DNA of 64,000 nucleotides from a candidate division WWE3 bacterium RAAC2_WWE3_1 (GTDB taxonomy: Bacteria > Patescibacteriota > WWE3 > UBA101185 > UBA10185), in assembly GCA_000503835.1 (NCBI GenBank), contig CP006914.1, positions 657,680 to 721,679 on the forward strand, in the 5' to 3' direction. The position numbers and the translations under genes were made by a program. Of the stretch, positions 16,275 through 52,893 are shown in pieces. The notes beneath the pieces are model-generated. The model was not told where the DNA came from. It searched no databases and worked only from the letters and a program-made list of their open reading frames with translations. Position 1 is the first letter of the stretch. Each line of letters opens with the position of its first letter.

Positions 16275-16610
16275 TTGTTAATATCCCCGTTTGTTAGTGT
16301 TAGAATATTTCTAATGCCGCGATCAATCACATCTTTGGGAAATTTCGAAGAGACCTCTCCGGAAGTACAAGAGCCCGGAATTGAAATTATTCCTCAAGTA
16401 ACTCCCGAAGTAGAAAAGGGGGGAGAAATGCCTTCTGTAGTCAATATACCGGAAACTGCCGCGCCTCCGATTGTTGATGTAAGCACGCACGAAACTCTAC
16501 CGGACCACCCCGTCACCCCGAAAGATTCCATAACATCTCTTGCGAACGAAGAGGAAAGCCGCTTCAGACAAGAAGTTCAGGAAGAAAAACTGCCCAATGG
16601 ATCAGCTTAA
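16275..16610 (+). CDS. hypothetical Pro/Glu-rich protein
   Basis: 111-aa low-complexity P/E/T-rich ORF. Its 3' end overlaps the VirB4-like gene start. Confidence 0.3.
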   Translation: MLISPFVSVRIFLMPRSITSLGNFEETSPEVQEPGIEIIPQVTPEVEKGGEMPSVVNIPETAAPPIVDVSTHETLPDHPVTPKDSITSLANEEESRFRQEVQEEKLPNGSA

Positions 16611-19041
16611 CAATCTAGATAGCATTAATACAACAGTCGAAAACACTGCGCACACAGCTGAATTTATTGCACCTATCCTTTTCGTCCTCTTCATAGCTCT
16701 TTATGTTTTTGTCGTGTGGAAGAAAAAACAGAACGAGAAAGTATCCCAATACAAGCTGACTTTTTTACAGGTTAAACTTCCCCCCGACAACGAAATAGAG
16801 GTAAAAGCCGCTGAACATATGTTTTCCAACCTGATGGGTTTTCAAAAAAGTTTCCTTCAATCCATATTTACAGAACCTTTTAGGATTTCGTTTGAGATAG
16901 TTTCAAAAGCCGACGGAATAGCATTTTACGTTGTCGCCCCAAATGAAATTGCAACTATAGTAGAAAAACAAATTAACGGAGCTTACCCTACGGCGGAAAT
17001 AGATATAATAAACCCCCATGAAATATGGGATAGGGGCTCTTACACACAGGTAGTGGAATTAAAACTACGCGGACCTTCATACTACCCACTCAAAATTTAT
17101 GAGGATCTGAAAAACGACTCTCTGAGCTCTATTACTTCTGCCATGAGTAAACTGAGCGATGACGAGGTCGTTGCGGTACAGTACGTTATTCAGCCTGCAG
17201 GGGATAACTGGAGACTGGCCGGTAGAAGATTTTGCTCCAGTATCAGACAACGGGCGGCTGATCCGGAAAAAAAGGTAAACATAGACACGTCATTCCTCGA
17301 AGGAATAGAAAAAAAGACCGCACTACCCGGGTTCTATACAAAGATCAGGATCGTCTCCGTGGCTAAAGACAAATTTGCCGCACAGTCCAACGTTCAGAAC
17401 ATGCTCAGCGCCTTCGAACAATTCACAAACATGAACTACAACAAACTTGTAAGGAAAACTATGATTTCGGCCAAAACTCTCATCAAAAATTTTATTTACA
17501 GAAAAATAAAAGTGAAGGATGTATACATACCTGTTGCCGGAATACAGATTTACTCCGATACGTCGGTCCTAAATATCGAAGAGCTTGCGACCGTGTTTCA
17601 CTTCCCGAATAAAAATATTGAGACGCCGAACATTATTTGGCTCACCGCGAGAAAATCTTCGGCCCCGGTCAACCTGCCGACAACCGGCCTTTACCTTGGA
17701 AAGAGTAACTTCAGGGGCGTAGAGAAGCAGATCTTTATGAGCCAGGAAGACAGGGCGCGGCACTTTTACATCATCGGACAAACGGGTACCGGTAAGTCTC
17801 AATTTTTAATGTCGCTTGCATTGCAGGATATCCAAAATGGCGAGGGTGTGGCAATAATAGACCCCCACGGAACTGATGTGGAGGAATTGTTAAAAAAGAT
17901 ACCGCCTTCAAGAAAAGATGATGTTATTCTTTTCGACGCGTCAGACACAGAAAGACCGATGGGTATAAACATGCTGGAAGCAAGGTCGGAAGAAGAGAAA
18001 CATCTGATAATCAACTCTTTCATAGCCCTTCTTTATAAACTTTACGACCCTAACCACCAGGGAATAATGGGGCCTGTTTTGGAGCGAACCGTAAGAAACG
18101 TTATGCTGACCGCGATGTCTGACCCGGACAGCACAATGATTGACGTTATGAGGCTCCTCACGGACTCCAACTACAGCAAAGTATTTATCGAAAGACTCAC
18201 CGACCCGCTGGTGAAAAGGTACTGGATAGACGAGGTCGCCAGCGTTCCGCAGGGAAAAAGGGGTGAAAATATGCAATATTTCACCGCTAAGTTCGACCGT
18301 TTCGTTACTGACAGAACTATGCGAAATATTTTAGGCCAGAAGAAATCCGCGTTTAATTTTGATGATGTTATGGCACAGAAAAAAGTACTTCTCGTCGATC
18401 TGTCAAAAGGAAAAATAGGCGAGGAAAATTCCAACTTTATTGGGTTATTATTGGTACCGAGAATATTATCAGCTGCCCTGAGAAGACATTCTCTATTAAC
18501 CAAGGGGGTCGCTTATCCGGACTTTTATCTCTACGTCGATGAATTTCAAAACTTCGCTACCCCTGACTTCGCGACAATCCTTTCGGAGGCCAGAAAGTAT
18601 AAATTGAACCTTACCGTTGCGCACCAGTTTATTTCCCAGCTCGATGACCAGATCAAAGAAGCCGTGTTCGGCAACGTCGGTACGATGTGTGCTTTCAGGG
18701 TGGGAGCGGAAGATTCGGAATTTCTGGAAAATCAATTTGCCCCTAAATTCACAAAGACCGATCTTATAAACCTATCGATAGGCAACTGCTACGCAAGAAT
18801 GCTTGTGAAAGGACAACCGACCCCTCCTTTCTCTCTGGCTGTAGACTGGAACAAGATAACTTCAACTCCAAAGGACGAGATACTGGCAAGGAACATCAAA
18901 GAAACATGCCGCCTCAAATACGGAGTTCCGGCAGAAGAAGTCGAAGAGTACATAAAACTCCGTGCCGGTTACGAAGAGAGAAAAGAACCGGAAGAGGCGC
19001 CCCTGCCTAAGATTCCTCCTCCCGGCAGAATTCCCTTTTAA
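16597..19041 (+). CDS. VirB4/TrbE-like type IV secretion ATPase (DUF87-type P-loop NTPase)
   Basis: About 815 aa. N-terminal TM helix. Walker A GQTGTGKS near residue 415. Walker B ...LYVDEFQNF and an ...EARKYKLNLTVAHQ motif about 240 aa downstream. This spacing is VirB4-like rather than VirD4-like. Confidence 0.5.
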   Translation: MDQLNNLDSINTTVENTAHTAEFIAPILFVLFIALYVFVVWKKKQNEKVSQYKLTFLQVKLPPDNEIEVKAAEHMFSNLMGFQKSFLQSIFTEPFRISFEIVSKADGIAFYVVAPNEIATIVEKQINGAYPTAEIDIINPHEIWDRGSYTQVVELKLRGPSYYPLKIYEDLKNDSLSSITSAMSKLSDDEVVAVQYVIQPAGDNWRLAGRRFCSSIRQRAADPEKKVNIDTSFLEGIEKKTALPGFYTKIRIVSVAKDKFAAQSNVQNMLSAFEQFTNMNYNKLVRKTMISAKTLIKNFIYRKIKVKDVYIPVAGIQIYSDTSVLNIEELATVFHFPNKNIETPNIIWLTARKSSAPVNLPTTGLYLGKSNFRGVEKQIFMSQEDRARHFYIIGQTGTGKSQFLMSLALQDIQNGEGVAIIDPHGTDVEELLKKIPPSRKDDVILFDASDTERPMGINMLEARSEEEKHLIINSFIALLYKLYDPNHQGIMGPVLERTVRNVMLTAMSDPDSTMIDVMRLLTDSNYSKVFIERLTDPLVKRYWIDEVASVPQGKRGENMQYFTAKFDRFVTDRTMRNILGQKKSAFNFDDVMAQKKVLLVDLSKGKIGEENSNFIGLLLVPRILSAALRRHSLLTKGVAYPDFYLYVDEFQNFATPDFATILSEARKYKLNLTVAHQFISQLDDQIKEAVFGNVGTMCAFRVGAEDSEFLENQFAPKFTKTDLINLSIGNCYARMLVKGQPTPPFSLAVDWNKITSTPKDEILARNIKETCRLKYGVPAEEVEEYIKLRAGYEERKEPEEAPLPKIPPPGRIPF

Positions 19042-37687: not shown

Positions 37688-37927
37688 TTATAAATTTACA
37701 AGGGCGGCGAGCAAAAGTATTAACGCCACGAAAAAATGTAATCTTCCGAAAAATGAAAACACCGAGCCGAGCGGCGTTGAAAAACTTTTATTCATTAGCC
37801 TTATTTGTCTCATAAGAAGAAACGCGAAAATTAAATATCCTGCAACGAAGAATAGAACTACAAAGTCCGTTACGGTAATTACTCCCGCGGCAGGTATTAA
37901 ATTTTCTAAGCTAGGCGTTGTGTTCAT
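37688..37927 (-). CDS. small membrane protein
   Basis: 79 aa with two hydrophobic helices. Confidence 0.3.
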   Translation of the reverse strand: MNTTPSLENLIPAAGVITVTDFVVLFFVAGYLIFAFLLMRQIRLMNKSFSTPLGSVFSFFGRLHFFVALILLLAALVNL

Positions 37928-38471
37928 GATTTTTCACCCTTGCGACCAGGTCAGACAAAACGTCCCTTATTTTTGAAGGGTCGTCTACACCCCCGAACTC
38001 GAACTCTCTTTTTTCTGCTGCTGTTTGTATGTAAAGGGCGCCGATGTTAAATGTAACTCCGATGGCTCCCGCAACATTTGAAGTTACGTCTTCGATATTG
38101 TCCAGAGTGGTTTCGGAAATATTCTTGTAAAGAATCCCCACAAAGTCCACGTCCACGATTTTTTTATTTGTGATAATGAGTACGTTAAAAAACCAGTTCA
38201 AAACATTTTGAAGAAAAAATCCGAAAACAAAAAGATACCAAAGAACCGTTAGTATTAAAACAGAACCACCATCGAGTATAGCGGGGGCTCCTTTCGGAAC
38301 TTGACTGACAATAAGCGGTACCAATATGGGGACAACGAAGAGGAACGCCGTCGCAAGTATCCACGGGAATGTTAGTAGTACGGATTTCCTTATTACGTAT
38401 TTTATTCTCTCGTCGTCATCTCTTCCATCATAAGAGGTGGATTTAGGGTTTTCCTGGAGTGATCCGAGCAT
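37911..38471 (-). CDS. bacterial PH-domain (YdbS/YdbT-like) membrane protein
   Basis: Two TM helices followed by about 90 aa resembling the bPH_2 fold (..VDFVGILYKNISETTLDNIEDV...). Confidence 0.4.
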   Translation of the reverse strand: MLGSLQENPKSTSYDGRDDDERIKYVIRKSVLLTFPWILATAFLFVVPILVPLIVSQVPKGAPAILDGGSVLILTVLWYLFVFGFFLQNVLNWFFNVLIITNKKIVDVDFVGILYKNISETTLDNIEDVTSNVAGAIGVTFNIGALYIQTAAEKREFEFGGVDDPSKIRDVLSDLVARVKNHEHNA

Positions 38472-38513: not shown

Positions 38514-40415
38514 TTATTTTTTTAGAATGTTAAACAACGCCTTACTGTCGGGGGTATGTTTTATAGCTATGTATCCGGGCGCTCTTATGTTGAACGCTTC
38601 TGCGAATATTTGACCATCCACCTGTTTTTCCCCTTTATCTGTGATAAAAGTTAGAGTGGTGGTTCTACCGTCGTTGAATTTAATATTTTTTACTCCGGTG
38701 ACATTTTCGTAACCCGCGTTGCTATCAACGGATTTGGCTTTACCCCTAAGCTCTTCTTTGTCGTAAGGATCCCCGCTCATTCCGGCAATCGGGCATTTGT
38801 TTATGGTTTCAGGCAGAATTCTGCTGGTATTTTTGTTCGCTTTTAACAAAACGTATGCATTTAGGATGTCCGCCATTTCTTCTCCATTAAGCCAGGGGTG
38901 TTTTCTGCCGCAGGTAGAAGAATCCCTTTTGTATGTTTGTGTAAACCAAGCTTTATAGAACCAAGGTGACTCCGCCTTTTTTTCATACGCATCGTTTGGC
39001 CACGAACCTCCGTCTGTAATGTCCCACCCCACACCATTTATCCATCCACCGGTAGTAGAGGAGTATTGGGCTGACACGCCTCCTTTGAGAATTCTGTCTT
39101 TGGTGTCGTCGGCCTTTATTGCCTCGTACCACCTTTTTCTGTCATCTCTATTCATTAGAGAGCTGCTGAAATACTGACAGCTAGTAGAGGTACAAATGCA
39201 GCCCCCATCTTTGGTCTTATTGTAGGCGTAGGTTCTAGCTGCTATGGCCTGGGCTTTTAGGGCGTCTGTGTCCCATGATGGGGGCATTTCGCCCAACCCT
39301 CTCAGATACTCTCCCATTTTCATATCCCCCACGCCCTGCACACATATAGTTTTTCCGTCAAGACCGTCTTTTTTTTCTATCCCCGTCTCGTAATAGTATT
39401 CAAGAATTTCTTCAAAGCTTTGGCCATCCTCAGCGCGCCCTTTCGCCCCGTATTGGCTCATTCCATTTCGGTGTGTGTATGCTCCGTAGCTGAAGGATCC
39501 GAATGCCGGGCTGAAGCCGGGGTTATAGCCAGGGTCAGTTCTCGAGTCATCTGTTTCCACTCCCTCACTCAAGGAAGCACTAAAATCACCGGATTTTGCC
39601 TGCAAAACTGCCTGTTGTTTTGATGTGAGGTCTGCGAGATCCTCTTCTATTTCTCCCAACTTCCCCTCAACTTCTTTCTCGTCGCCGGTGACATTACTCA
39701 ACTCTCCCTGTGCGGAATTCTTTCGCGCGTCAAGTTCAGCTTTGGCGGCTAAAAACTCTTTTTGCGTATCTTCAAGTTCCCCCTTTAATTTTTCTCCCTC
39801 AGCTTTATCTTTTTCGTAGCTGTCTATTTCCGAATTCAATCCTGTGATTATTTTTATCGTTTCGTCGGTTACTGCGGTATTAAAAGCCTGGGATAGGGTA
39901 GCGAATTGAAAACCGTTCAATCCCGTTGAAGCATTTGTTACCAAAAAAGTTTCAATGTCGTTGAGCAGGTGTCTTTTGGAATATGTACGTACTACTTTGT
40001 TTCTTAGGGATATTTTTTCGGCAAGAGAAGTTTTTCTGTCTGCAAGTATCGCATTTATTTCATCGAGCTGTTTTTTTATTTTTGTGATTTCATTTTGAAG
40101 GTCATCGATCTCTGCTTGTGTCACGCTGATCTGGCTAAGAAGCCCGGAGATTTTTTGTGTTATCTGGTTTTTTGTTTCTCGGATTTGGGAAAGTTTGCTG
40201 CTTGTGGATTGGTATTCATCTTCTTTTTTTTCTATTTGTTCTTCGTAGCATTTTGCTTTGTCATCCAGGTCTGAGATGTTTTTGCAGGGGTCGTCTGCGA
40301 AGGTGTGGGTGGCCAGCAGCACTGCCAGGAGTGTAAACAAAAAGATAGTCCATACGCTGGAGTTTAGATGTTTAACGGATACAGATGTAGGCAGATGTAT
40401 GTTGGGCTCGAACAT
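38514..40415 (-). CDS. SpoIID/LytB-domain peptidoglycan-remodelling protein with long N-terminal coiled coil
   Basis: Signal/TM, then about 250 aa of coiled coil (SMC/CwlO-like). GMSQYGAKGRAEDGQSFEEILEYYY matches the SpoIID/LytB signature. Confidence 0.6.
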   Translation of the reverse strand: MFEPNIHLPTSVSVKHLNSSVWTIFLFTLLAVLLATHTFADDPCKNISDLDDKAKCYEEQIEKKEDEYQSTSSKLSQIRETKNQITQKISGLLSQISVTQAEIDDLQNEITKIKKQLDEINAILADRKTSLAEKISLRNKVVRTYSKRHLLNDIETFLVTNASTGLNGFQFATLSQAFNTAVTDETIKIITGLNSEIDSYEKDKAEGEKLKGELEDTQKEFLAAKAELDARKNSAQGELSNVTGDEKEVEGKLGEIEEDLADLTSKQQAVLQAKSGDFSASLSEGVETDDSRTDPGYNPGFSPAFGSFSYGAYTHRNGMSQYGAKGRAEDGQSFEEILEYYYETGIEKKDGLDGKTICVQGVGDMKMGEYLRGLGEMPPSWDTDALKAQAIAARTYAYNKTKDGGCICTSTSCQYFSSSLMNRDDRKRWYEAIKADDTKDRILKGGVSAQYSSTTGGWINGVGWDITDGGSWPNDAYEKKAESPWFYKAWFTQTYKRDSSTCGRKHPWLNGEEMADILNAYVLLKANKNTSRILPETINKCPIAGMSGDPYDKEELRGKAKSVDSNAGYENVTGVKNIKFNDGRTTTLTFITDKGEKQVDGQIFAEAFNIRAPGYIAIKHTPDSKALFNILKK

Positions 40416-40546: not shown

Positions 40547-41350
40547 ATGTTCTTTGTGAAAAATAATTTCTTAAAAGTGTTGGGCATAGTATTTGTGCTT
40601 TCTCTTTCTATGACAACCACGACCGCCCCCTCTGTGTTTGCTGCTGAGGGTGGGGTGTGCTCGGGGTACACCTTACACAATACATGTGGCGGACAGAAAA
40701 CAGCGGATGGGCTCGAGTGCACTTGTGCGGTGGGGTACCGTTGTTTGGCCCCAAGCCTGTCTTGTTACTGCCAGAAAGATGATACGTGCGGTGTTGCCAC
40801 GGATATTTGTGATGCTGCCCACGAGGGTCAGTGCGGGGTTGCAGGGGGTTGTGGTAAAACAACAACAGTTTGTAAGAAGACGGTTGCAACCGTAAGCGGA
40901 GGCTCTCCGGTATATAACTACGACTGCGTATACGATTACTCTTCTCCGTGTGCATGCGTGTTGGGGCAAACATGCCCTGACGATGGTATCCACCAGTGTC
41001 TTCCTACCGGAGGTTGCTGGGCACCAACACCGACAAGTACAGGAGACTACACTTCAGGAGAATGGGTGTATAACGAACCTGAGTACAAAGGTCCTATAAT
41101 CACGGATATTGCCGGCCTTCTCGCCCCTGTTTTTAAAATCCTTTTCTACGCCGGCATTTTCATTGGAATATTAGGCATTATTTACTCAGGCTATCTGTTA
41201 ATCGCAAGCGAAGGCGACCCCGGAAGGGCAAAAGAAGGCAAAGATCAATTTACCGCAGCCATTTTAGGCACCCTTTTCGTGCTGTTGTCAGTATTAATAC
41301 TGCGGGTTATAATTAACAACATCCTGGGTGTTACCAACTCAGTATTGTAA
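40547..41350 (+). CDS. Cys-rich secreted domain fused to a VirB2/TrbC-like two-helix pilin module
   Basis: Signal peptide, about 130 aa with at least 20 Cys, then a C-terminal module (TM, SEGDPGRAKEGKDQ loop, TM, ...INNILG) that is paralogous to the three downstream small proteins. Confidence 0.5.
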   Translation: MFFVKNNFLKVLGIVFVLSLSMTTTTAPSVFAAEGGVCSGYTLHNTCGGQKTADGLECTCAVGYRCLAPSLSCYCQKDDTCGVATDICDAAHEGQCGVAGGCGKTTTVCKKTVATVSGGSPVYNYDCVYDYSSPCACVLGQTCPDDGIHQCLPTGGCWAPTPTSTGDYTSGEWVYNEPEYKGPIITDIAGLLAPVFKILFYAGIFIGILGIIYSGYLLIASEGDPGRAKEGKDQFTAAILGTLFVLLSVLILRVIINNILGVTNSVL

Positions 41351-41390
41351 CTGGTTTTTTTGAGGGAGGTGTAGAAACTAAATAATTAAT

Positions 41391-41717
41391 ATGAACTTAT
41401 TATCTTTGTTAGAATCAAAGGTTTACGCGGCTGCTGCTCCTGTCGATAAAATAGAAGGTATTCCGGTTAGTAGCGTTAACGAACTCGTTACAGTTATAAC
41501 AAACATCCTTATTATTGTTGGAGTAGCTGTTGTCGTAATCTTTTTGGCCATGGGGTTTATTAAGTACATTACTTCAGGAGGAGACAAGAACGCTGTAGAT
41601 TCCGCGCAGAAGACACTTACCTACGCGGTCATCGGAGGAGTCGGGCTGCTTATAGTTTATGGGTTAAGAACGCTGCTATTGAACTTGCTGAATGCCCAGT
41701 CTCTTGAGGGCTATTAA
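41391..41717 (+). CDS. VirB2/TrbC-like pilin paralog
   Basis: 108 aa. TM, TSGGDKNAVDSAQKT, TM, LLLNLLN. Confidence 0.5.
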   Translation: MNLLSLLESKVYAAAAPVDKIEGIPVSSVNELVTVITNILIIVGVAVVVIFLAMGFIKYITSGGDKNAVDSAQKTLTYAVIGGVGLLIVYGLRTLLLNLLNAQSLEGY

Positions 41718-41750
41718 CCACGGGGCCGCCGCTTTAGTTTGCTATTAAGT

Positions 41751-41771
41751 GGGCCCGGTAGGCCCGGGCCC
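41751..41771 (+). other. GC-rich perfect hairpin (GGGCCCGG-N-CCGGGCCC) between pilin paralogs
   Basis: GGGCCCGGTAGGCCCGGGCCC. No U-run follows. Possible intra-operon attenuator or RNA-processing/stability element. Confidence 0.35.
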
Positions 41772-41797
41772 CCGTTATAATTTAGGAGTTTATTCAT

Positions 41798-42109
41798 ATG
41801 AGACCTTTCGAGTGGCTGGAAAGTGCTGTATCCAGCGTACCTATAGCTGTAGAGACAAATAAAGGAACGAATTTAACCGGGCTGGCGGTTATGTTTGCGA
41901 ATGTTGCCGTAATCATAGGGTTTGGCGTATCTCTTATAGGGCTTGCCTACTCCTTTATCATTTATATTACAAGTGGGGGGGATCCTAAATCAGTACAGAG
42001 AGCTCAAAGGTCTGCGACATGGTCAATCCTAGGTCTACTAGTGAGCTTGGCTGCATGGGGTATAAAAACTGTGCTACTTAACCTCTTGAATGTTACTGAT
42101 ATTTATTAA
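41798..42109 (+). CDS. VirB2/TrbC-like pilin paralog
   Basis: 103 aa. TM, TSGGDPKSVQRAQRS, TM, VLLNLLN. Confidence 0.5.
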   Translation: MRPFEWLESAVSSVPIAVETNKGTNLTGLAVMFANVAVIIGFGVSLIGLAYSFIIYITSGGDPKSVQRAQRSATWSILGLLVSLAAWGIKTVLLNLLNVTDIY

Positions 42110-42121
42110 TATCTAATTTTT

Positions 42122-42601
42122 ATGCTAAATCTACTTATATTAAAAATCATTAAATTTACAAAAATATTTTTCGTTCCTGTTTTTTATATTTTTCTTTCCT
42201 ATATTTTTTCACCGGTATTGTTTGCGGCGAATTTTGATGAACCTACATTAGGCCAGGCAAGGCCACTTCTTGTCAGCATCATGAACTGGCTGGTGTTTCT
42301 TGTCGGAATAGTATTTGTTATTGTCGTGGTTTACGGTGCCTGGAAAGCTTCGACAGCAACAGGGGACCCCCGTGGCCTCGACTCTGCGAAGAGCACCTGG
42401 AGCTACGCCATTTTCGGGCTGTTAGTTGTAGCAGGGTTTTTTGCTCTCTACACAATCATTTCCGGGCTTTTTGGTTTCAAGATAGGCTTTACAGAAATTT
42501 TTGACGGAATTTTTGACGGTATTTCGGAGCTTACTCAGATAGCAATTCCCAGTCCTGCGCCGTTACCTCCCCCAAGTGAACCTCCGCAGCAACCGCAGTA
42601 A
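42122..42601 (+). CDS. VirB2/TrbC-like pilin paralog with Pro-rich C-terminal tail
   Basis: 159 aa. TM, TGDPRGLDSAKST, TM, then a PSPAPLPPPSEPPQQPQ tail. Confidence 0.45.
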   Translation: MLNLLILKIIKFTKIFFVPVFYIFLSYIFSPVLFAANFDEPTLGQARPLLVSIMNWLVFLVGIVFVIVVVYGAWKASTATGDPRGLDSAKSTWSYAIFGLLVVAGFFALYTIISGLFGFKIGFTEIFDGIFDGISELTQIAIPSPAPLPPPSEPPQQPQ

Positions 42602-42645: not shown

Positions 42646-43245
42646 TCAATAGAAAGATCTGTCCGGTGAATCCTGAAAGACTGAAGAAAAAACCTGTTTG
42701 AACTGACTGAGCGGCATTGGGTCGAAAGTTGCCACATAGTAAACTTGCCCGGAATATTCCTCGAATACCACAGCCACACCCTGTTGGGTATAAACGTGAA
42801 CGGTTCCCACACTGGAGTTTGAGAGATACATTACAGCGTCCGGTGTCCCTAACTTGTAATATTCTTTTAAACTGGTTACGTTTTTTTCCTGGTCAGTTGC
42901 CGCCGGTCTCATTACTCCCACCACTTTTGTTTCTTCATTAGTTATGACATCGACGGAACGGTAGGTGTCTTTATCCGTGTACCTGTTTATGGTAAATCCC
43001 TTCCCAATATTTTCCTGGCCAACTTTTTCGAGATTTTGGTGGGTTTCTTCTACGCTTGATATTGTGTCGCCGGGTGTTTGATCCAGGGGGTATGTCGTAA
43101 CGACGCTCTGCTCTCCGGTCGAAGTGGTAAATCCTGCCGGGGGAGTGCCTTCCTTTGGTTTTTCTGTGTTTGTAACTGCAAGCAATATAATCAGTGCGAC
43201 AGCCAAAATAATGTAGGGAGTGTATTTTTTAATCCGGTTTAACAT
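42646..43245 (-). CDS. membrane-anchored extracytoplasmic protein (immediately downstream of the giant zincin protein)
   Basis: Start chosen at MLNRIKKYTPYIILAVALIILLAV (signal-anchor). The ORF track's longer version overlaps the upstream gene. Confidence 0.45.
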   Translation of the reverse strand: MLNRIKKYTPYIILAVALIILLAVTNTEKPKEGTPPAGFTTSTGEQSVVTTYPLDQTPGDTISSVEETHQNLEKVGQENIGKGFTINRYTDKDTYRSVDVITNEETKVVGVMRPAATDQEKNVTSLKEYYKLGTPDAVMYLSNSSVGTVHVYTQQGVAVVFEEYSGQVYYVATFDPMPLSQFKQVFSSVFQDSPDRSFY

Positions 43246-43252
43246 ATTTTTA

Positions 43253-46200
43253 TTATCGTACAAATAATACTTCCTGAGCAAACCTTTGATGCACCGGGAA
43301 TTTATCCCAAAAGGCGTTGTAGTCGCCAAGAGGGTAAGTAAGTTTTGCTGTTGCCGAGCAGGAACCGAAAGTATTTATTGCTACCATGTCGCCGATAGTT
43401 TCGGCGAAATCCTCGCCGGTGCTGTTATTCGTGGTGCAGTTTCCGTCATACGTAGGTAATGTTTTTCCGCCCTCAAGTCCCTTTACGGAGTCAAATCCTC
43501 CAGGGAACCCCGGTACGGCGGTACTTGTGTTTAACCGCCAAAAATTATAAATGTGTCCCAATTCGTGAGCCAGGAGATAGCTTGTGGCATTTAACCTTGT
43601 GTAGTAGCTGGTGCATGTGTCGTTAAAAGTTATTATTCCGCTCCCCGAAGCGAATCCGCAGTACCCGCCTCCGCCGCTTACTCTGCTAAGCGTTATCTTT
43701 TTGTCATCCGAACAAAGAGTGCCCAAAAAAGTTCCTGTAATTCCCGAGATGTTCCACAAAGCGGCCTCAAAGTTTGCTCTTTCACCTCCGGGGAAGCCTT
43801 GAAATACAAAGCAATCCATGGGAACCGGAGGAGTCCCTATCCTTAAATATCTGGCGAAGGTAACCGTTTCTGCGGCGGTTCCCTGAAAGCTTGGGGTTTC
43901 CACCGAAAGCGTGTTTTTTAATAACGAGTTTTCAAAAGCGGTGCCTAGTGAAACCCCGTTAAGGGTTAGCGTGTAAGTTTCCCCCGCCGTGAACGCCCCA
44001 AGATTTTGATTGTCTGCGAGAGTCGCAACCGTCGTTTCCCCGTTCTTAGTTAGCTGAGTGACCACATCGGAAAACACGACTGAGGCTCCTTCGATGTCGA
44101 CCTTGGGAGTAATCCTTATCGTGTACGTTGCCGTTATTCCGGGTACGAGTTCGCCGTTATCCAGACTCTCCGTAGGGTTGAGTTTATTTGGTGTTCCACT
44201 GGCAAACGAAACCTCCACGTCCTTTTCAATTTTAATCAGTGCGTTTTCTCCTTGGGGAAGTCCGGCCCCCGTTCCTCCATACCCGCTATTGTCCCTGGTT
44301 GGGTCGATTGGAGATATAGAACTGAGGACAGTTCCGAACAATCCGTATACCAGAATATAGATTAGTATTAGCGGAATTCCTATAACATACATTGAAAACT
44401 TAACGACTTGCCCAATCTCTTTGTCTATTTGCGCTATTGCTTTGTTTATATCTCCCTGAGCCAATGCGCCCACAAAGTTTTGTCCGAATTCAACAACTTT
44501 TCTTGTTATGAAACGTACGAGGGGTTTTAAAACTTTTTCTATCAAATAATCCAAGACAACGGTGGCACCGCCGGTTGCTGCATGAAGGAATTTGGTCGCA
44601 AGTTCGGTTATTATAGTAGCAACTACTTCTGAGATTTTTTCTGCAACGATCGTTTTTATTTGTAGAACGGGACGGATAGCTTTTTGAAACAGGGCAAAGC
44701 CGAAGATTTTGTTTTGGAGTTTGTTCAGTCCTACCCCCAATCTCTGAATTGCACCGGAGAACTCCTTGGTTATCTTTAGAGACCCATAGAATTGGTTTTC
44801 TTTATTCAGACCATTGAAAAGTGCAAGGACGCGTTTTTGGGTGTCTGCGTCCATTGCCTGGAAATCGTCCCAAGAAATTCCAACAGATGCTCCGTTTGTT
44901 TTTAGCCATTCCTTAAAATCGTCGATTTGCTTTTGTACGATTTCTAGAAAATGATCGTCTTTGCTCCAAAAACCCGGTAGTTTTTCACCATAAATCTTTA
45001 CAAGCTTTCCATTTTTGTCCAGGACAGTGTCTGTGATTTTTCTTGCTGTTCCATCCGCTGTTTTCCCTCTAATCAAGTCCAGCAAATCGTCATCACTGAG
45101 GTGACTAACGTTTGATAGTGTGTTCCCTAAAGTTTCAACCGCTGCTAATTTTTTATCTCCAAGAAAGGTCGCTCCTATTTTATTACCGCCCTGAAATACT
45201 CCATCTTTATTGTCAAGTTCTACAGTAAATTTATGACGGAAGACATCATTAAAGCGTTTACTGTTTCTCAGTCCATCGGAAATGTAGTTATCGTCGATAA
45301 CTAGTCCAAAATATCCGACTTTGTTGAGAGTTTGTGTCGCAATCTCCCCCGGGGTATACCCGACCAGTTTCTTAGATAGCTTGTTCCAAACGTACCTCTC
45401 CATAAACTTTCCTTCTGTTACAGCGTCGTAAAATTCCTGTATAGCGTAAGAACCTCTATCTATCTCCAACCTGGAGGCCACCATTCGTGCTTTGTTCGCA
45501 AAAAACCCTTTGTAAACTTGTCCGTCCTTTTGGAAAAGCTGTTCCAAAGTTTCTCCGTTTAGATTTGGTTGTTTTGACAACTGCTCTAGCTCACTGAGAT
45601 AGGTGCCTATTTGAAACCTTTTATCAACACTTGTTAGTTTTCCGGGCAGTATGATGTCGCTTTCCATCTGTCTCAACAGACCGCGGTGAATACTCGTGTC
45701 GAACAAACCACCTCCGGTTAGTTCTTTTCCGTTCACAGTGATGTTCGCTATTTTGTTATATAACTGGCGGTCGTCTCCTGTGTACGTATTAAGAGCGTCT
45801 TGTACTTTACGTAGATACTCTTTATACATGTCAGTATGTTTCTGAAGTGCTGTTGCGGATGCCAGATCAATTTTCTTTACACGCTCAATAGTCTGGTCAA
45901 TCGAGTCGTCCCCGGTTGCTGCCAACCTATTAGAGATGTTTGTTTTTAAAGACGCCATTTTTGCTTCAAATCGCGTCTGAGTTCCTGTCGGACTTTCTTT
46001 GGAGTCCCAACGGGCTTCTTCGTCCGTGCTTCCGGAAATTCTCGCTTTGAGGGCACTTTTAAGTCCGAACCTACCTGATATAGCTCCGTCCATAACTATA
46101 TCCATATCGTTGGCCAGTTTGTTTTTTTCGGCTAATATTTTTACGGCATTTTGGAAGTTTTCCGCTTGTTTGGGGTCGGAATAGAGTTGCGAAAAGAGCT

Positions 46201-47074
46201 CTACACGGCTTTTGGATTTGGTCAGTGGATTTCCCTTGCTGTCGACTTTCTGGACTCCTGCCTCGTCGAGGTCGGGCACATTGTATTTTCCATTAAGCTC
46301 TGCTCCAATTCCTTTGGATAGAGATGATACAAAGCTGTCGAACTTGCCGTCCCTTTTCTGACCGGCCTGCATAACTTTTTGGACATCCACAACATTCTTA
46401 GCCATCGTTTCATAAATTTTTCCCACCCCGTCGACGTAGTCGGCTTCAGGAAAGTTGAAAAGTGCTCCACTGCTGTCCGGAGAACCTGCCATTGCCTTAG
46501 TTGCGGAGGTAATTGACACTCCTCCCTCTCTTCCCAGGGGGCTAACATCCTCTTGCAATCCCATCGCAACTCGCCACATACCCGATTTAACACGGGTGTC
46601 GTAGTCAGTTAAATCTACCGGCCACGCTTCAAGCCCCCAGCCTTTTTTCTGGAACCGTAGACCGGTGCCGGCCTTTATCCAGCTTTTCGCCGTTTTTTCC
46701 AACACCTTGCCGGGATCCTGCCATTCTGCCGGGTCGAGGGTCAGGCTGATGCTAGATACGCCCGGCATAACGTCTTGGTCGTAATCATCCATCTGCTCTA
46801 CCGGTATATCGCCAGGATTGTAAGTTGCTTTCAGATTGCTCTTAAAGTCATCAACATATCTATCTAAAAACCACTTAGGAAGATTTCCCGCGTCAAAAGA
46901 CATCTGATCCAACTGCTCCAGCCAGTAGTCGGCATTGTATTCATATTTTCCTAGGGGAACTCCGGGGGGCGGTCTATAAGCCCTTTGTCCTTGAGAATAC
47001 CCCGGAAAAAGCGGGTTGGTAGAGTCCCCCTCTTTTTGTGGTATGTACCCCGGAAATAGGGGATTGTTTGCCAT
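43253..47074 (-). CDS. giant (1273 aa) membrane-anchored protein with C-terminal HEXXH zincin-like domain
   Basis: No N-terminal signal peptide. NPLFPGY x2 at the N-terminus. Single TM about 870 aa in (YVIGIPLILIYILVYGLFGTVL). C-terminal about 370 aa with Ig-like segment and LLAHELGHIYNF...EDFAE (HEXXH plus downstream Glu). Confidence 0.6.
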   Translation of the reverse strand: MANNPLFPGYIPQKEGDSTNPLFPGYSQGQRAYRPPPGVPLGKYEYNADYWLEQLDQMSFDAGNLPKWFLDRYVDDFKSNLKATYNPGDIPVEQMDDYDQDVMPGVSSISLTLDPAEWQDPGKVLEKTAKSWIKAGTGLRFQKKGWGLEAWPVDLTDYDTRVKSGMWRVAMGLQEDVSPLGREGGVSITSATKAMAGSPDSSGALFNFPEADYVDGVGKIYETMAKNVVDVQKVMQAGQKRDGKFDSFVSSLSKGIGAELNGKYNVPDLDEAGVQKVDSKGNPLTKSKSRVELFSQLYSDPKQAENFQNAVKILAEKNKLANDMDIVMDGAISGRFGLKSALKARISGSTDEEARWDSKESPTGTQTRFEAKMASLKTNISNRLAATGDDSIDQTIERVKKIDLASATALQKHTDMYKEYLRKVQDALNTYTGDDRQLYNKIANITVNGKELTGGGLFDTSIHRGLLRQMESDIILPGKLTSVDKRFQIGTYLSELEQLSKQPNLNGETLEQLFQKDGQVYKGFFANKARMVASRLEIDRGSYAIQEFYDAVTEGKFMERYVWNKLSKKLVGYTPGEIATQTLNKVGYFGLVIDDNYISDGLRNSKRFNDVFRHKFTVELDNKDGVFQGGNKIGATFLGDKKLAAVETLGNTLSNVSHLSDDDLLDLIRGKTADGTARKITDTVLDKNGKLVKIYGEKLPGFWSKDDHFLEIVQKQIDDFKEWLKTNGASVGISWDDFQAMDADTQKRVLALFNGLNKENQFYGSLKITKEFSGAIQRLGVGLNKLQNKIFGFALFQKAIRPVLQIKTIVAEKISEVVATIITELATKFLHAATGGATVVLDYLIEKVLKPLVRFITRKVVEFGQNFVGALAQGDINKAIAQIDKEIGQVVKFSMYVIGIPLILIYILVYGLFGTVLSSISPIDPTRDNSGYGGTGAGLPQGENALIKIEKDVEVSFASGTPNKLNPTESLDNGELVPGITATYTIRITPKVDIEGASVVFSDVVTQLTKNGETTVATLADNQNLGAFTAGETYTLTLNGVSLGTAFENSLLKNTLSVETPSFQGTAAETVTFARYLRIGTPPVPMDCFVFQGFPGGERANFEAALWNISGITGTFLGTLCSDDKKITLSRVSGGGGYCGFASGSGIITFNDTCTSYYTRLNATSYLLAHELGHIYNFWRLNTSTAVPGFPGGFDSVKGLEGGKTLPTYDGNCTTNNSTGEDFAETIGDMVAINTFGSCSATAKLTYPLGDYNAFWDKFPVHQRFAQEVLFVR

Positions 47075-47131: not shown

Positions 47132-48472
47132 ATGAGTAAAACAACGAAATTTTTATTACCCGTCGTCATTTTTTCAATCATATTTTCTCTTGTACAGGGA
47201 TCTGTTTTTGCCGCCGACCCGAAGTGCGAGGTTGAAAAAAGAATGTTCGATAAAAACCTTTTCAGCGACTTATTAGGAATTCCTCTAACTACAAAAGATT
47301 TTGTTACATCCGTGGCCACTTCGGCATATAGCACCGTCTCAGGATTTGGAATAACCGAGACCGTAAATTGCGGTAGCTATGTGGCCACCAAACTGAGTTT
47401 ACCTACAACAGGAGGCATCGGATACTTTTACGATTGCTCGGGGACCGACACAGCGGTGTGTGATCAAATGTTGAATTCCCAACCTTCCGGGGGTTCGGCA
47501 GGAACAACCAATTGGTTAGCTTCCTACTCACAAAGTCGGGTTGCAGGAACGTTGCTGGGCGCGGCTTACTTAACTGAAAATTTCACAATGAACGAACCTT
47601 TGCCCGCCAACCTTGCTTTTTATGTCAACGATACTTTATCAAGGGTTCCGATAGTTAACAAAACGTTTGCGGCAACACAGGACTACGGTCACGCTCTGCT
47701 TAATTCGATTTTGGGTACCTGGAAAGTATTCCGAAATCTTGCATATGCTTTGATGGCTATCATCCTTCTTTACACAGGAATAATTATTATCTTGAGAAGA
47801 AAAATCAGTTCTCAGCTGGTGGTCAGCGTTCAGTACGCTTTGCCCAGAATAATAATAGCCATAATACTAATCACATTCAGTTATCCGATTGGAGCTACCA
47901 TCGGAAGTTTGGGTTGGACTTTATTTAAAAGTAATTGGGCAATCGCAGAAAGCATTTTCAGGGACAGTTTTGCAGGAACCGCTATAGCAGGCACTATTGC
48001 GCAGGGAGGGGCTCTCAGACTTTGGGCAACCATGATTCCCTTGATTTCTTTAACAGGTACCGGACCTATATTTTTATTGGCGATAGTTGCGATTGTAATT
48101 ATATATTTGGTCGCCGGTCTGATATTTAACTTCAAAGCAATAATCATTTATATCAAGATAATACTTTCAATACTAACTGCCCCGCTGGAATTTGCACTGG
48201 GTGCCGTGCCCGGAAACGACGAAAAGATAAAAGGGTGGTTTATGAGAATGGCCAAATATACGCTCACGTTGTTCGCGATGGGTATTATTCTGCCTCTGGG
48301 AACGATCATCGCTATGTTCGTTGCTCTGGATTACGCTGTTGAAACTGCAGGTGTCGGAGTACTTTTATCGATGGCAATGCCGATTTTCATAATTCTCTAC
48401 TGTTTCGGAATAGGAATAGGAATGGAAAAGAGAATTGAAGAGTTTATGGGTACGGGTCAGAAGAAAAGATAA
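47132..48472 (+). CDS. VirB6/TrbL-like polytopic membrane protein
   Basis: Signal peptide, about 190-aa extracytoplasmic N-domain, then 5-6 TM helices. This topology is typical of VirB6. Embedded between two giant surface-protein genes. Confidence 0.45.
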   Translation: MSKTTKFLLPVVIFSIIFSLVQGSVFAADPKCEVEKRMFDKNLFSDLLGIPLTTKDFVTSVATSAYSTVSGFGITETVNCGSYVATKLSLPTTGGIGYFYDCSGTDTAVCDQMLNSQPSGGSAGTTNWLASYSQSRVAGTLLGAAYLTENFTMNEPLPANLAFYVNDTLSRVPIVNKTFAATQDYGHALLNSILGTWKVFRNLAYALMAIILLYTGIIIILRRKISSQLVVSVQYALPRIIIAIILITFSYPIGATIGSLGWTLFKSNWAIAESIFRDSFAGTAIAGTIAQGGALRLWATMIPLISLTGTGPIFLLAIVAIVIIYLVAGLIFNFKAIIIYIKIILSILTAPLEFALGAVPGNDEKIKGWFMRMAKYTLTLFAMGIILPLGTIIAMFVALDYAVETAGVGVLLSMAMPIFIILYCFGIGIGMEKRIEEFMGTGQKKR

Positions 48473-48487: not shown

Positions 48488-51400
48488 TTAGTTCGGTAGT
48501 TGCGTTGCGCTGCCTCCTGCGTAGCACGAGCTCCACAGGATACCTTTTTCCGTCCAGTAACCTGCTAGTTCAGTATCAGCGTATGCCCCGACCCTATTTC
48601 CTCCAAATGCAAGATCCTTTATCGATTCGGAGGCTTGGGGCCATGTCAAATTTGCGCAACCTGAACCGGATAATTCTTTAGCCGCAGCGAACGTGGCATC
48701 AAGGAAGTTACATCTGGACGCGACAGCGCTTCTTCCGGCGGACAGGGCATCCAGTTCTGAGGAAATGTCCACTTTATCAAACCAAGTCTTTATCCAATCG
48801 TAAGGTCCTATAGCTGCAGTGTTTGTGTCGTCGCATTGGGACACCTTACCATACCAGGGAAAGCTGGCTTCAAAAAGAGCCTGTTCGCCTGCAGTTGAAA
48901 ACAGATATTGATACAAAGGTATGTCCGGTTTGTGCACAACTTTTAGATAGGTTATTATCGATGCTGCCGGTACCTGATATATACTTGCAGCCGCGTCCAC
49001 AATTAATCTGAAGGTGGGGGAGAGTGCTCCGATGCCGCTTCCAAAATTATTTGTGCACTCCTGTGTAGTGGAAAGTTGGCACGCGGGAACTAAGCTTTGC
49101 GCAAGCACATTTGGATCTATTATTTCAGGAATAGGCACCGGATTGAGGGGGCATAACCATCCTGTGCTGGAGCCTAGCTCGCTGTTAATACAGTGATAGT
49201 TTAAAGTATCTCCTCCGGAATAGGGATTAACGTATAGTGCGTGGGCAGATATCATTTTATATTCCGGAGCAGCCCCCCCGAATCCCATAATGTCTTTATT
49301 CTTATTCTCAGAAACATTGGTAGTGTCCTGACTTACCGATGTGTTAGCGGACATAAAAGCAAGATTTCCGTAAACTTTGTTTGTGAGGGGGTGAGAAAGC
49401 TTTTTCCACATTTCGTTATTTATTATTTTTGTGGAATCTAAGCCAACATCCGGAGTTGCTTCCCTGAAAGTTGATTGTGATGATCTAAAGTTGGAGTCTT
49501 TGGAAACGGAGGCGGCGCAGGTATACGGGCCTGCGTCCTGCAAGTTACATGCATGCCCCTTGTCGCTTTCATCCACCCTCTTTATTGCGCAGGAAGTATT
49601 TTCTTGGCCGACACAGTATTCCCTAGGTCCTATCTCACCGGGACAGTTGTAAACTACGCACCCTGAAGAAGGCATGGTGTTCAGACTTCCCCAATAGCTG
49701 TCGGAACTCTCAGCGGGGCAGGTGACGTTGGCGTCCAGATTGTAACCATAATTTTGACTCATACAGGAGAGATCCGGAGTTCCCCCACTCATGCAATCTA
49801 TGTTTTTTTCTATGCATTGTTGGATTAGTGTAGTGTCCCCTGTTGTCGGACATTGTTCTGTTTTAACTGATGGAGCGCAGCCATACTTTACGACGCTTCC
49901 ATTGACCACCTGGCAAGTGCAGGTTTCCACTTCCTGTACCGTCACACAGTTTTCAACCTTGCATGTTCTTGTAATTTCGCTCGGAGCTGGGGCATTCCAA
50001 CGTTCGTAACAGCTATCTCCGACACCTATCTCGTTCCAAGGGTAGCAGGCTGAATTTCCCCACTGGTCGCTGGATAAATTTGCTGTGGTAGGCAGTCCGA
50101 AAACATTCTCAAAATTCTCCTCGCTCAGGTCAAATCCTACCTGTATGTCGTCTCTTAAGTCTCCTGCGCCCGGGTCAAGGTTATAAGTACTGGTTCTGTC
50201 AAAATACGATTTGTTGTCCGACCCTAGACCGCTATTAATCGCCGCACCTATCCATGTGAGAAACAAGGTAATAGGATTATAGCTTCCCGAGCCGTGGGAT
50301 GACGTCAAAAGACTGTCGTATATATCCATTCTCTTTGTGACCTCGTTTGTAAGGTTCTCGTAGGCATACTCTCTGAATTTTGCGGCCGTTGTATAGAATA
50401 TGGTGGAGGTGGCTGTTCTTTTGCCTTTTGGGCTTAATTCTACGGTATCAAAATAATGGTCCTGGTTGCCTTTAAAATCATTATTCATATCCACAGTAGC
50501 TTCGTTTTGCGGTAAGAACACGTCGTTGTGGTTGTTAACATTGGAATTTTCGCAGAATGAGAGTAAGTTTGATCCCGCATCCTCTATTTTGATTGTTCCC
50601 TGGTCATAGAGCGCTTTATCTTCCAATGTTTCCCCCGGCCTTTGAAGGACGTAACTTAAACTATAGCTGGTTTTACTAAGCTCTGATGTAGCAATCCCCG
50701 CCATAATGGGTGTAAGTCCGTTGTTTCTGGATAGGGCGTAGTTATTATCCGAGTAGTATGTTCCTCCCTTTACGGGAACACCGCCCTTTTCTTGGTTTCT
50801 GGTAAACGTTTTTTGATTTACGCCGGCTCCGTAAAAAGTATCGTTTGTTCCTTCAAAGCTGTACCCAACCTTTGTTGATGTACCTTTATTTCCGAAAAAA
50901 TATGAAAATTCAGGATTCCAGTATGTTTTATCCAGAACAAACGTGCACCCTGCTTTACCGGGCGTGCAGTAGCTCCATGGGGGTTGTATGTCGCCTATTT
51001 TTATCTTTGTCCCGCCTTTTTGGCAAACGTATGTACCTTTTATACTGTCATCTAAAGTTGCTTCAGTCTCCGATAGTAAGATTGCAGGATTAGCCAAATT
51101 TCTGGCGGGCCCTGCGCTGTATTGTCTATTTCTATAATCTCCTTCAACTGTCGCACTTGCAGAATTGCATGATTTTAGTTCATCGCATTCGGGCAAAACA
51201 TCTTTGGTCGTATCGTTCCTTTCTCTTAGGTAAACGCTTCCTCTGCAGTTACTGAAAATTGTGTGCAGAAGCTGAGCAGGGGCGGTGGGGTTTTGCGAAT
51301 AATTTACGACATCCTGTCTGGCAGTAATGTCTTTAAAGAATAACAAGGAGTTTTTAATCGGAATATTAGGTAAAAAATTCATCCTGGTAAACAGGGCGTT

Positions 51401-52300
51401 GGTGTAAAGGTTGTTTTCGTAAGCATTTCGGGCTGTTCCCTGCTGTGCTATAGTTGAACCCGCAGGGGGGTTAAAACAAAGGGCGCTTACGGTATCCTGA
51501 CTGCCGTATATTCTCTGGCAATCTTCGTGATAAAAAGCTCCTTTATCCGGAGTGACGTCCGGATCATTTAGCCATCTGTCGAACTCTCCGATTACGCTTC
51601 CCCGCACTTTATATCTCGAATCCGCGTTAGTTATTTTCAGGAAAAAATTAAATTCGAGCTCAGGTTTGTAGGCCTGACTAAAAGTACCCTCGTATGAGGG
51701 AAGAAGAGAAGTGTCTGCCGGATTAGTTCTCGTTATATCGCAGCTCAACTTGTTAAAACTTACCGGATTTAATTGGGGCGGGGGTGGTGCATAGCTTGAG
51801 GCACCTGTACAGCTTAAGGGGGTGTTCAACGTAAAACTTGCGTAAGAAGGTATTCTAAATAGCCCTGCTAATTTCCCCCCGCAGGCAAATGCGAGGTACC
51901 TTATTTGGTTGTTTCCGACTTTCCTCATTGTTATGTAGTAGTAACCATTTTCATCGGAGGAGGTTGAGGAGAAGATGTTTGTTAGAGCCCCGTCGCTTTT
52001 GCAGGTAGGGGAAGTGGGGTCGCATTCGTACATATAAACAGAAACCCCTTCAATAGGGGGATTTGGACTGGCCGTAGTGGCACCTCCGACATCTACTTCC
52101 TGTGGGGTGGCACTTCTTACTACTCCGCAAACTACACCGAGTCTTGGATCTTCAGTTTTACGGCACGTTGTTCCGGGTTCGAAAACATCTGAGGGATCTG
52201 TTAAGTCCGCAGCGTGTGTAGTTGTTTTTCCAATACCCGCCGCAAAAATGAACAGCAATAATGAAAAAATATATTTTCCGCTCAGAAATTTGTACCTCAT
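48488..52300 (-). CDS. giant (1270 aa) secreted Cys-rich surface protein
   Basis: Cleavable signal peptide (MRYKFLSGKYIFSLLLFIFAAGIGKTTTHA). More than 60 Cys distributed throughout. No TM after the signal peptide. Confidence 0.6.
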   Translation of the reverse strand: MRYKFLSGKYIFSLLLFIFAAGIGKTTTHAADLTDPSDVFEPGTTCRKTEDPRLGVVCGVVRSATPQEVDVGGATTASPNPPIEGVSVYMYECDPTSPTCKSDGALTNIFSSTSSDENGYYYITMRKVGNNQIRYLAFACGGKLAGLFRIPSYASFTLNTPLSCTGASSYAPPPPQLNPVSFNKLSCDITRTNPADTSLLPSYEGTFSQAYKPELEFNFFLKITNADSRYKVRGSVIGEFDRWLNDPDVTPDKGAFYHEDCQRIYGSQDTVSALCFNPPAGSTIAQQGTARNAYENNLYTNALFTRMNFLPNIPIKNSLLFFKDITARQDVVNYSQNPTAPAQLLHTIFSNCRGSVYLRERNDTTKDVLPECDELKSCNSASATVEGDYRNRQYSAGPARNLANPAILLSETEATLDDSIKGTYVCQKGGTKIKIGDIQPPWSYCTPGKAGCTFVLDKTYWNPEFSYFFGNKGTSTKVGYSFEGTNDTFYGAGVNQKTFTRNQEKGGVPVKGGTYYSDNNYALSRNNGLTPIMAGIATSELSKTSYSLSYVLQRPGETLEDKALYDQGTIKIEDAGSNLLSFCENSNVNNHNDVFLPQNEATVDMNNDFKGNQDHYFDTVELSPKGKRTATSTIFYTTAAKFREYAYENLTNEVTKRMDIYDSLLTSSHGSGSYNPITLFLTWIGAAINSGLGSDNKSYFDRTSTYNLDPGAGDLRDDIQVGFDLSEENFENVFGLPTTANLSSDQWGNSACYPWNEIGVGDSCYERWNAPAPSEITRTCKVENCVTVQEVETCTCQVVNGSVVKYGCAPSVKTEQCPTTGDTTLIQQCIEKNIDCMSGGTPDLSCMSQNYGYNLDANVTCPAESSDSYWGSLNTMPSSGCVVYNCPGEIGPREYCVGQENTSCAIKRVDESDKGHACNLQDAGPYTCAASVSKDSNFRSSQSTFREATPDVGLDSTKIINNEMWKKLSHPLTNKVYGNLAFMSANTSVSQDTTNVSENKNKDIMGFGGAAPEYKMISAHALYVNPYSGGDTLNYHCINSELGSSTGWLCPLNPVPIPEIIDPNVLAQSLVPACQLSTTQECTNNFGSGIGALSPTFRLIVDAAASIYQVPAASIITYLKVVHKPDIPLYQYLFSTAGEQALFEASFPWYGKVSQCDDTNTAAIGPYDWIKTWFDKVDISSELDALSAGRSAVASRCNFLDATFAAAKELSGSGCANLTWPQASESIKDLAFGGNRVGAYADTELAGYWTEKGILWSSCYAGGSATQLPN

Positions 52301-52840: not shown

Positions 52841-52884
52841 CCGCATGGAATGACGACCTATAGTTATAATTAATCCTATTTTCG

Positions 52885-52893
52885 TGGTAAAAT
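52885..52893 (+). promoter_or_regulatory. extended -10 element (TGGTAAAAT) upstream of the tmRNA
   Basis: TGn-TAAAAT located 18 nt upstream of the predicted tmRNA 5' end. Confidence 0.35.

Follow-up and report, generated by a model that had tools for sequence, protein, structure and literature searches.

We describe a two-gene module in a 64,000-nucleotide stretch of the candidate division WWE3 bacterium RAAC2_WWE3_1, an ultrasmall member of the Patescibacteria (contig CP006914.1, positions 657,680 to 721,679), called here the window and numbered from its first letter. The larger gene (43253..47074, reverse strand) encodes a 1273-residue membrane protein ending in a HExxH metallopeptidase-like head, and the gene after it encodes a 199-residue membrane-anchored partner. 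On balance, and with moderate confidence, we read the big protein as the cell-wall peptidase of a type IV secretion system (T4SS) or pilus, that is, as an analogue of VirB1 and PrgK with a new kind of head, and the partner as its cognate regulator. The zincin character of the head and the place of the module in T4SS operons of related bacteria carry most of this reading.

The head contains two short motifs that could build a zinc site. HELGH (residues 1170–1174; 43553..43567, reverse strand) would provide two zinc-ligand histidines and the catalytic glutamate, and is 100% conserved in 154 sequences. EDFAE (residues 1221–1225; 43400..43414, reverse strand) is the candidate third zinc ligand on a glutamate helix. 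We estimate that chance alone would put a HExxH motif into a few percent of proteins of this length. An exhaustive profile search with the head module alone gave at least 169 cluster representatives (clusters at 50% identity), and among these the module is nearly always C-terminal in membrane proteins of 750–1300 residues. When about 154 modules were aligned, both histidines and the glutamate of HExxH as well as the distal glutamate E1221 were conserved in 100% of them. The alanine of EDFAE is kept in 92% and its second glutamate in 91%; the tyrosine of a PTY motif (95%), two cysteines (97–98%) and a C-terminal histidine (93%) are also strongly conserved. The HExxH and EDFAET block is retained down to 39% identity among 12 full-length homologs, and HExxH is invariant in nine of ten complete close homologs, if the two CHAP-type sequences described below are counted as one case.

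An AlphaFold model of residues 925–1273 has a mean predicted local distance difference test score (pLDDT) of 68. Confidence is high for the β-sandwich and for the first half of the head, which comprises a helix, a sheet and the long HExxH helix. This half of the head superposes on zincin catalytic domains, and the combination of the HExxH helix with a mixed β-sheet is the zincin fold. When the ectodomain was compared with the PDB by Foldseek, the β-sandwich dominated the matches. A profile of 28 sequences matched the zinc metallohydrolase 9urd_A in the PDB (E=4.7e-4) with an alignment spanning both motif helices; EDFAE is aligned there to REDFVE of 9urd_A, in a stretch where the pLDDT of our model is below 50. 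Nearly all other listed PDB matches of the profile are zincins (MJ1213, Pro-Pro endopeptidase, M3B, tetanus toxin light chain, Ste24, IrrE and proabylysin), and the weak Pfam matches of the head fall mostly in zincin families. No Pfam, NCBIfam or PHROGs model reaches its cutoff on the head. Judged from sequence and model together, the head is a predicted zincin-type (gluzincin-like) metallopeptidase domain of a family without a curated model.

The closest known group consists of 9urd, named 'substrate import-associated zinc metallohydrolase lipoprotein', together with Peptidase_Mx1, the minigluzincins (MJ1213 projannalysin and proabylysin) and M48, all of which are zincins with glutamate as the third ligand. 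Similarly to 9urd and the minigluzincins, the head has a β-strand before the HExxH helix, followed by a predicted E-x-x-x-E or 'EDFxE' helix. Its matches to Peptidase_Mx1 and M48 are weak, and scores against the 9urd/Mx1/M48 group are marginal (E=4.7e-4 and 0.009), with no family reaching its cutoff. Unlike this group, the head has additional conserved cysteines, the PTY motif and the C-terminal histidine of its own. In literature searches of incomplete coverage we found no published description of the head family or of the function of 9urd. A first-pass annotation, made from the DNA letters and the open reading frames, had proposed a zincin-like domain at the end of this protein. The proposal is borne out by the conservation of H, E, H and the distal glutamate in homologs, by the peptidase-like fold and by the profile matches; the checks it suggested turned up neither loss of the motif in orthologs nor a non-peptidase fold of the head.

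The rest of the big protein is consistent with a bitopic topology. The ATG-initiated open reading frame for 1273 residues was confirmed, its product matches P147_WWE3C00001G0717 of the same bacterium at 100%, and 12 full-length homologs were found. Hydropathy analysis gives a single strongly hydrophobic segment, taken as the transmembrane (TM) helix (residues about 887–923; 44306..44416, reverse strand), and neither an N-terminal hydrophobic stretch nor a signal peptide. One TM segment, no signal peptide and HEXXH with a downstream glutamate are exactly what the first-pass annotation described, and reading frame, hydropathy and motif positions agree with it. The TM segment is the best-conserved part among the HExxH-type orthologs, with a mean identity of 73%. 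All six cysteines of the protein (residues 1088–1239) lie C-terminal of it. The N-terminal domain of about 886 residues (44417..47074, reverse strand) has no cysteine and no signal peptide, is common to about 37 cluster representatives and is probably cytoplasmic. It has no match in Pfam, PHROGs, NCBIfam or the PDB, and a profile of the whole protein gave only noise against the PDB. The N-in orientation is supported by a relative with a different N-terminus, since that protein has a cytoplasmic DnaJ domain ahead of its TM segments. At the very beginning of the scaffold two copies of NPLFPGY (residues 4–10 and 20–26; 46997..47065, reverse strand) form a proline- and aromatic-rich motif, and variants of the pattern NP[LF][FY]PGY … PGY.PG.P.PR are kept at the extreme N-terminus of scaffold-sharing homologs. 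It is possible that this duplicated motif is a short docking peptide.

Outside the membrane the TM helix would be followed by an Ig-like β-sandwich spacer (residues about 941–1079; 43838..44254, reverse strand) and by the zincin-like head with its conserved cysteines (residues 1080–1273; 43256..43837, reverse strand). Confinement of the cysteines to the head, at least three of them conserved in at least 90% of the family, points to an extracytoplasmic location. The protein would thus place about 886 residues inside the cell, cross the membrane once, and carry at the end of the sandwich a zincin head, stabilised by disulfides, within the wall zone. Neither the 1273-residue protein nor its partner has a usable match in Pfam, PHROGs, NCBIfam, PADLOC or single-sequence PDB searches. 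A scan for promoters and terminators returned counts equal to those in shuffled sequences.

The partner gene (42646..43245, reverse strand) starts with the ATG at 43245, 7 nt past the stop codon of the big gene, and its product has 199 residues, not 200 as first annotated. A TM helix at residues 6–25 is followed in the model by a disordered linker and an ectodomain with a pLDDT of about 90, in which a unit of one helix and four strands is repeated in tandem. According to this model the fold is BLIP-like or DUF4309-like. Members of the partner family match DUF4309 and DUF3862 in Pfam weakly (one member each, E about 0.004, below the cutoffs), and the nearest known group is the superfamily of DUF4309 (B. 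subtilis YjgB, 4ygt), DUF3862, BLIP and BamE-like proteins. Unlike these, the partner is membrane-anchored, is encoded in T4SS operons and stays below the Pfam cutoffs. The BLIP-like fold includes a known enzyme inhibitor. To our knowledge YjgB has no known function, and inhibitor activity within the superfamily is known for BLIP only. The NTF2-like extracellular domain of VirB8 was not found in the partner fold, and a VirB8 identity, which the gene position had prompted, was rejected on the fold. A match of the partner to TMEM156 (E=6e-4) was judged spurious.

Association of the partner with the head was assessed in 27 distinct, de-duplicated HExxH loci, which were drawn from WWE3 genomes, Logan assemblies and JGI metagenomes. 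In 24 of them a full-length gene of the partner family (A4) stands directly after the HExxH gene; in two it is truncated or weak (one at a contig end, one a short open reading frame), and from one (L023) it is absent. Tight coupling of a small anchored gene to the big one had been noticed before, and this tally confirms and extends it. The partner is kept also in loci whose big protein has no β-sandwich, and for this reason we conclude that it tracks the head. In L023 a WWE3-type HExxH protein of 1125 residues without the β-sandwich (P0016, 5239-8616) is followed directly by the pilin array.

The genomic position of the module in relatives connects it to T4SS machinery. Whole N-terminal scaffolds are found in about 37 cluster representatives, and more than 85 have only the sandwich and zincin cassette, carried on other membrane N-termini. 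In all six loci without the WWE3 scaffold for which upstream sequence is available, virB4 lies immediately upstream of the HExxH gene, and two of these six loci are beside dnaN/dnaA. More of the operon is seen in L018, whose contig extends beyond virB4; its genes run PrgI/VirB3, TraC-like, VirB4, HExxH protein, A4 partner. A minimal HExxH protein of 297 residues, barely an anchor and a head, is encoded directly after VirB4 and before an A4-type partner in L033 (4647-5537); some lineages evidently manage without the giant cytoplasmic scaffold. In the WWE3 window the pair is convergent with four VirB2-like pilin genes (PF18895 'T4SS pilin'; 40547..42601, forward strand), an array identified by Pfam and present in all WWE3 loci. 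The description of the surroundings as a T4SS-like locus holds, given these pilin genes next to the pair and the virB4 operon position in relatives. A secreted coiled-coil protein with a SpoIID/LytB domain (38514..40415, reverse strand; PF08486, and TIGR02669 with 93 bits against a cutoff of 83) belongs to a family of peptidoglycan glycan-strand hydrolases and adjoins the pilin array in every WWE3 locus.

Comparison with known systems clarifies what such a position may mean. VirB1-type hydrolases of monoderm bacteria are bitopic: one domain lies inside the cell, and CHAP, SLT, muramidase or LytM heads lie outside (PMC12857230). In a T4SS survey of Patescibacteria VirB1 homologs were rare and VirB8 was mostly undetected, and it was considered that other hydrolases may replace VirB1 (PMC12102498). 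In the pCF10 record a PrgI-family protein and a VirB4-like ATPase are followed by PrgK, a hydrolase of 871 residues, and by PrgL of 208 residues. The HExxH family occupies the same slot as PrgK of pCF10, TraG of pIP501 and VirB1-type proteins of MPF-FATA T4SSs, after VirB4 and before an N-anchored protein of about 200 residues. It shares with PrgK and TraG the predicted bitopic layout, as judged from hydropathy, cysteine distribution and the DnaJ domain of the relative, and the WWE3 orthologs P0009 and P0010 share with them a putative CHAP head. It differs from them in having a HExxH zincin instead of an SLT, muramidase, LytM or CHAP head, in its much larger cytoplasmic domain (about 886 residues) and, in WWE3, in lying beside a pilin array and not beside VirB4. 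Alignments of the big protein (A1, A7) compared with PrgK by hhalign gave probabilities below 1%, and hhalign of the partner against PrgL detected no homology. The likeness to PrgK is therefore an analogy and not family membership.

A second comparison is offered by Southlakia epibionticum. Its T4SS cluster, located near dnaA, has an essential protein of 1113 residues after VirB4 with a C-terminal LAS-type (Hedgehog/DD-peptidase, M15/M23-like) domain, followed by a lysozyme/Cys-peptidase protein (PMC10633639). This protein, SEML1_0007 (Wang et al. 2023, PMC10633639), resembles the big protein in being a giant post-VirB4 protein with a C-terminal wall-hydrolase head of metallopeptidase type. 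Its head is however LAS-type and not HExxH, and the next gene encodes a lysozyme/Cys-peptidase and not a BLIP-like protein.

One WWE3 lineage has exchanged the head and the partner. The orthologs P0009 and P0010 keep the scaffold at 52–66% identity but have diverged much more in the TM segment, the sandwich and the head. They lack the HExxH module, and their tail matches nearly the whole Pfam CHAP model with cysteine and histidine in the expected places. Aligned with the CHAP domain of PrgK by hhalign, the tail of P0009 gives no significant score (E=0.53). The gene downstream of these CHAP-type proteins encodes an unrelated anchored protein of 157 residues (hhalign probability of 0.6% against the partner family). 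One further family member has a Peptidase_M23 domain in addition. That HExxH, CHAP and LAS heads are interchangeable on conserved scaffolds suggests an adaptation to the chemistry of the wall, and the head type could be of use in inferring, from a genome, the wall type of the host or of the cell itself.

Taken together, we propose that the head cleaves peptide stems or cross-links of peptidoglycan locally and so opens a passage through the wall for a VirB2-like pilus or channel, possibly in concert with the SpoIID/LytB-type glycan hydrolase encoded nearby. Through its large cytoplasmic domain the enzyme would be coupled to the T4SS ATPases. The 199-residue partner would bind the head specifically and restrain or position its activity, i.e. 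serve as a cognate regulator or inhibitor. Peptidoglycan as the substrate is suggested circumstantially by the operon slot, by the CHAP and LAS/M23 alternative heads and by the syntenic SpoIID/LytB enzyme; direct contact between head and partner, and regulation by it, would follow from the same reading. A two-gene module represented in at least 169 clusters at 50% identity, and without any curated match, fills exactly the VirB1 and VirB8 slots of the operon. It would be a concrete candidate for the missing wall-breaching enzyme, a new zincin family and a first secretion context for the DUF4309/BLIP-like fold. Patescibacteria (candidate phyla radiation, CPR) account for a large part of the diversity of bacteria.

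A more elaborate version can be imagined, in which the pair is an enzyme and inhibitor switch built into an essential secretion machine of the epibiont: the domain of about 886 residues would sense the state of the ATPases and, through the TM helix, free the zincin from a BLIP-like inhibitor only at sites of pilus assembly; alternatively, or additionally, the head would act on the host wall at contact. We put this forward tentatively and consider it rather unlikely as a whole. If it is true, the module would represent a new peptidoglycan-directed zincin family and the first role of a DUF4309/BLIP-like protein in secretion.

It is important to note that several observations weigh against a cell-wall peptidase with a dedicated regulator. 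The C-terminal half of the head, including the glutamate helix, is poorly modelled (pLDDT <50), and for 9urd, the solved structure most closely related to the head, our literature searches found no published function. Among characterised HExxH gluzincins, none that is specific for peptidoglycan and close to the head module is known to us. Neither sequence nor profile comparisons relate the big protein to PrgK or to any known family of peptidoglycan hydrolases. In the window its gene is not beside VirB4, and the sole T4SS-type ATPase there is coupling-protein-like and lies about 24 kb away. As for the partner, a BLIP-like fold is no proof of inhibition, being shared by BamE, OsmE and YjgB, and L023 has no partner gene across its 11.8-kb contig, which makes it the sole clear exception to the rule that head and partner go together. 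The CHAP match has an E-value of about 5e-4 and 20.8–21.2 bits, with the Pfam cutoff at 26. Moreover, replacement of head and partner is a single event over one contiguous block of TM, sandwich, head and partner, and could be one recombination without functional meaning; the metagenome scan gave no further CHAP-type cassettes.

Among the other explanations, the partner could be a structural subunit in the VirB8 slot, a non-homologous replacement of PrgL or TraM that forms a wall-spanning part of the channel beside the hydrolase. It has the position, size and bitopic topology of PrgL of pCF10 and is very strongly conserved alongside the hydrolase, and VirB8 homologs are largely undetected in Patescibacteria (PMC12102498). 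However, an unrelated protein takes its place when only the head changes, which is not expected for a subunit fitted to the machine; Southlakia has a separate NTF2-like protein, and the fold of the partner is BLIP-like/DUF4309 and not VirB8/NTF2. We consider this explanation unlikely. A zincin could also trim the four adjacent VirB2-like pilins, comparable to TraF-type processing of the TrbC pilin. Such pilin maturation would fit the WWE3 gene, which adjoins the four-gene PF18895 array, and a membrane-anchored, outward-facing protease is correctly placed for it. Still, it is virB4 and not a pilin gene that precedes the pair in other lineages, the alternative CHAP and LAS/M23 heads are typical peptidoglycan peptidases and not pilin peptidases, and neither the cytoplasmic domain of about 886 residues nor the cognate BLIP-like partner is explained, all of which makes pilin maturation improbable.

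The first-pass annotation had offered two further ideas, a polymorphic toxin with its immunity protein and a protease-armed adhesin, and neither is supported by our results. In the first of them, in the form of an effector and immunity pair, the zincin head would hit the envelope of the host bacterium at epibiont contact and the partner would protect the envelope of the producer. Coupling of the anchored partner to the head is strict, and the two were swapped together in the CHAP lineage, so that one toxin-like trait, a cognate small downstream gene changing with the head, is indeed present. T4SSs that attack other bacteria with peptidoglycan-hydrolase effectors, and whose immunity proteins are periplasmic, are known (PMC8740702, PMC10933484). 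A T4SS is needed for epibiotic growth in the sole genetically tested member of the Patescibacteria (PMC10633639). Polymorphic toxins with zincin (Tox-MPTase) heads (Zhang et al. 2012, PMC3482391) are similar in their C-terminal metallopeptidase and linked small gene, and the one joint replacement resembles them too. Unlike these systems, the big protein carries neither a secretion signal nor a trafficking domain, is held by its TM helix with no more than about 350 residues outside, and sits in a core, syntenic locus with a fixed T4SS slot. Its head is not hypervariable: among the HExxH-type orthologs it has a mean identity of 52.7%, as compared with 51.5–61.6% for the scaffold, and in P0003–P0005 it is more conserved than the scaffold. 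The check for swapping of C-terminal toxin heads thus yielded a head that evolves no faster than the scaffold and one replacement lineage. Orphan toxin or immunity cassettes are absent from the locus, where a pilin array lies downstream and synteny runs between housekeeping genes, and PADLOC gave no matches. Head and partner have been kept over deep divergence after virB4, as would be expected for a machine part and not for a diversifying weapon. Because of this pattern of conservation the effector explanation is weakened, and we regard it as quite unlikely. For a surface adhesin one could cite the resemblance of the β-sandwich to adhesin repeat domains. There is only one such domain, dispensable in relatives, in an ectodomain of only about 350 residues on a membrane anchor; about 70% of the big protein is on the cytoplasmic side, and wall-anchoring or repeat architecture is lacking. 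An adhesin is therefore hardly credible.

Regarding the neighbourhood of the module, all WWE3 contigs examined show the same strict gene order: SmpB, a Cys-rich protein of about 1270 residues, a polytopic protein of about 440 residues, the big gene, the partner and four pilins, followed by the SpoIID/LytB coiled-coil protein, three unannotated genes, L25 and a class I tRNA synthetase. The locus is core chromosomal and not a mobile or variable island. The polytopic protein of the window (446 residues; 47132..48472, forward strand) is transcribed divergently from the big gene, has the same position in all WWE3 loci, and consists of a signal-like N-terminus, an extracytoplasmic segment of about 190 residues and many TM helices. 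It matches no family in any library searched, and we infer that it is a candidate VirB6-type channel subunit; VirB6 was not found in some Patescibacteria classes by the T4SS survey (PMC12102498). The Cys-rich secreted protein (1270 residues; 48488..52300, reverse strand) is flanked by SmpB and the polytopic gene in every WWE3 locus, and has no match in Pfam, PHROGs, NCBIfam or PADLOC. SmpB and then the transfer-messenger RNA gene (52912-53300, tag ADKDAFVGVPAMAAVAA) form the left border of the conserved locus (52355-53300, forward strand).

On the other side, the first pilin gene (40547-41350, forward strand) encodes 267 residues with a Cys-rich N-terminal extension of about 170 residues before the pilin domain, its counterparts having 271–453 residues. 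The three conserved unannotated genes, all on the reverse strand, are 35876-37684 (602 residues), 37911-38471 (186 residues) and 35398-35757 (119 residues); the 602-residue protein has faint β-propeller-like matches and the 119-residue protein a zinc-ribbon match (E about 9e-4). Near dnaA (23861-25330) there is a VirD4/TraD-type, coupling-protein-like ATPase of 833 residues (16540..19041, forward strand) with DUF87, TraG-D_C and TrwB_AAD_bind domains and TraD/VirD4-like NCBIfam matches; it is not orthologous to VirB4 from L018. It is followed by an FtsA/PilM-like protein (19060-20274, forward strand) and then by a protein of 503 residues with a baseplate wedge/Baseplate_J-like match (PHROG 6, E=4e-7), the whole block extending over 16540-21803 on the forward strand.

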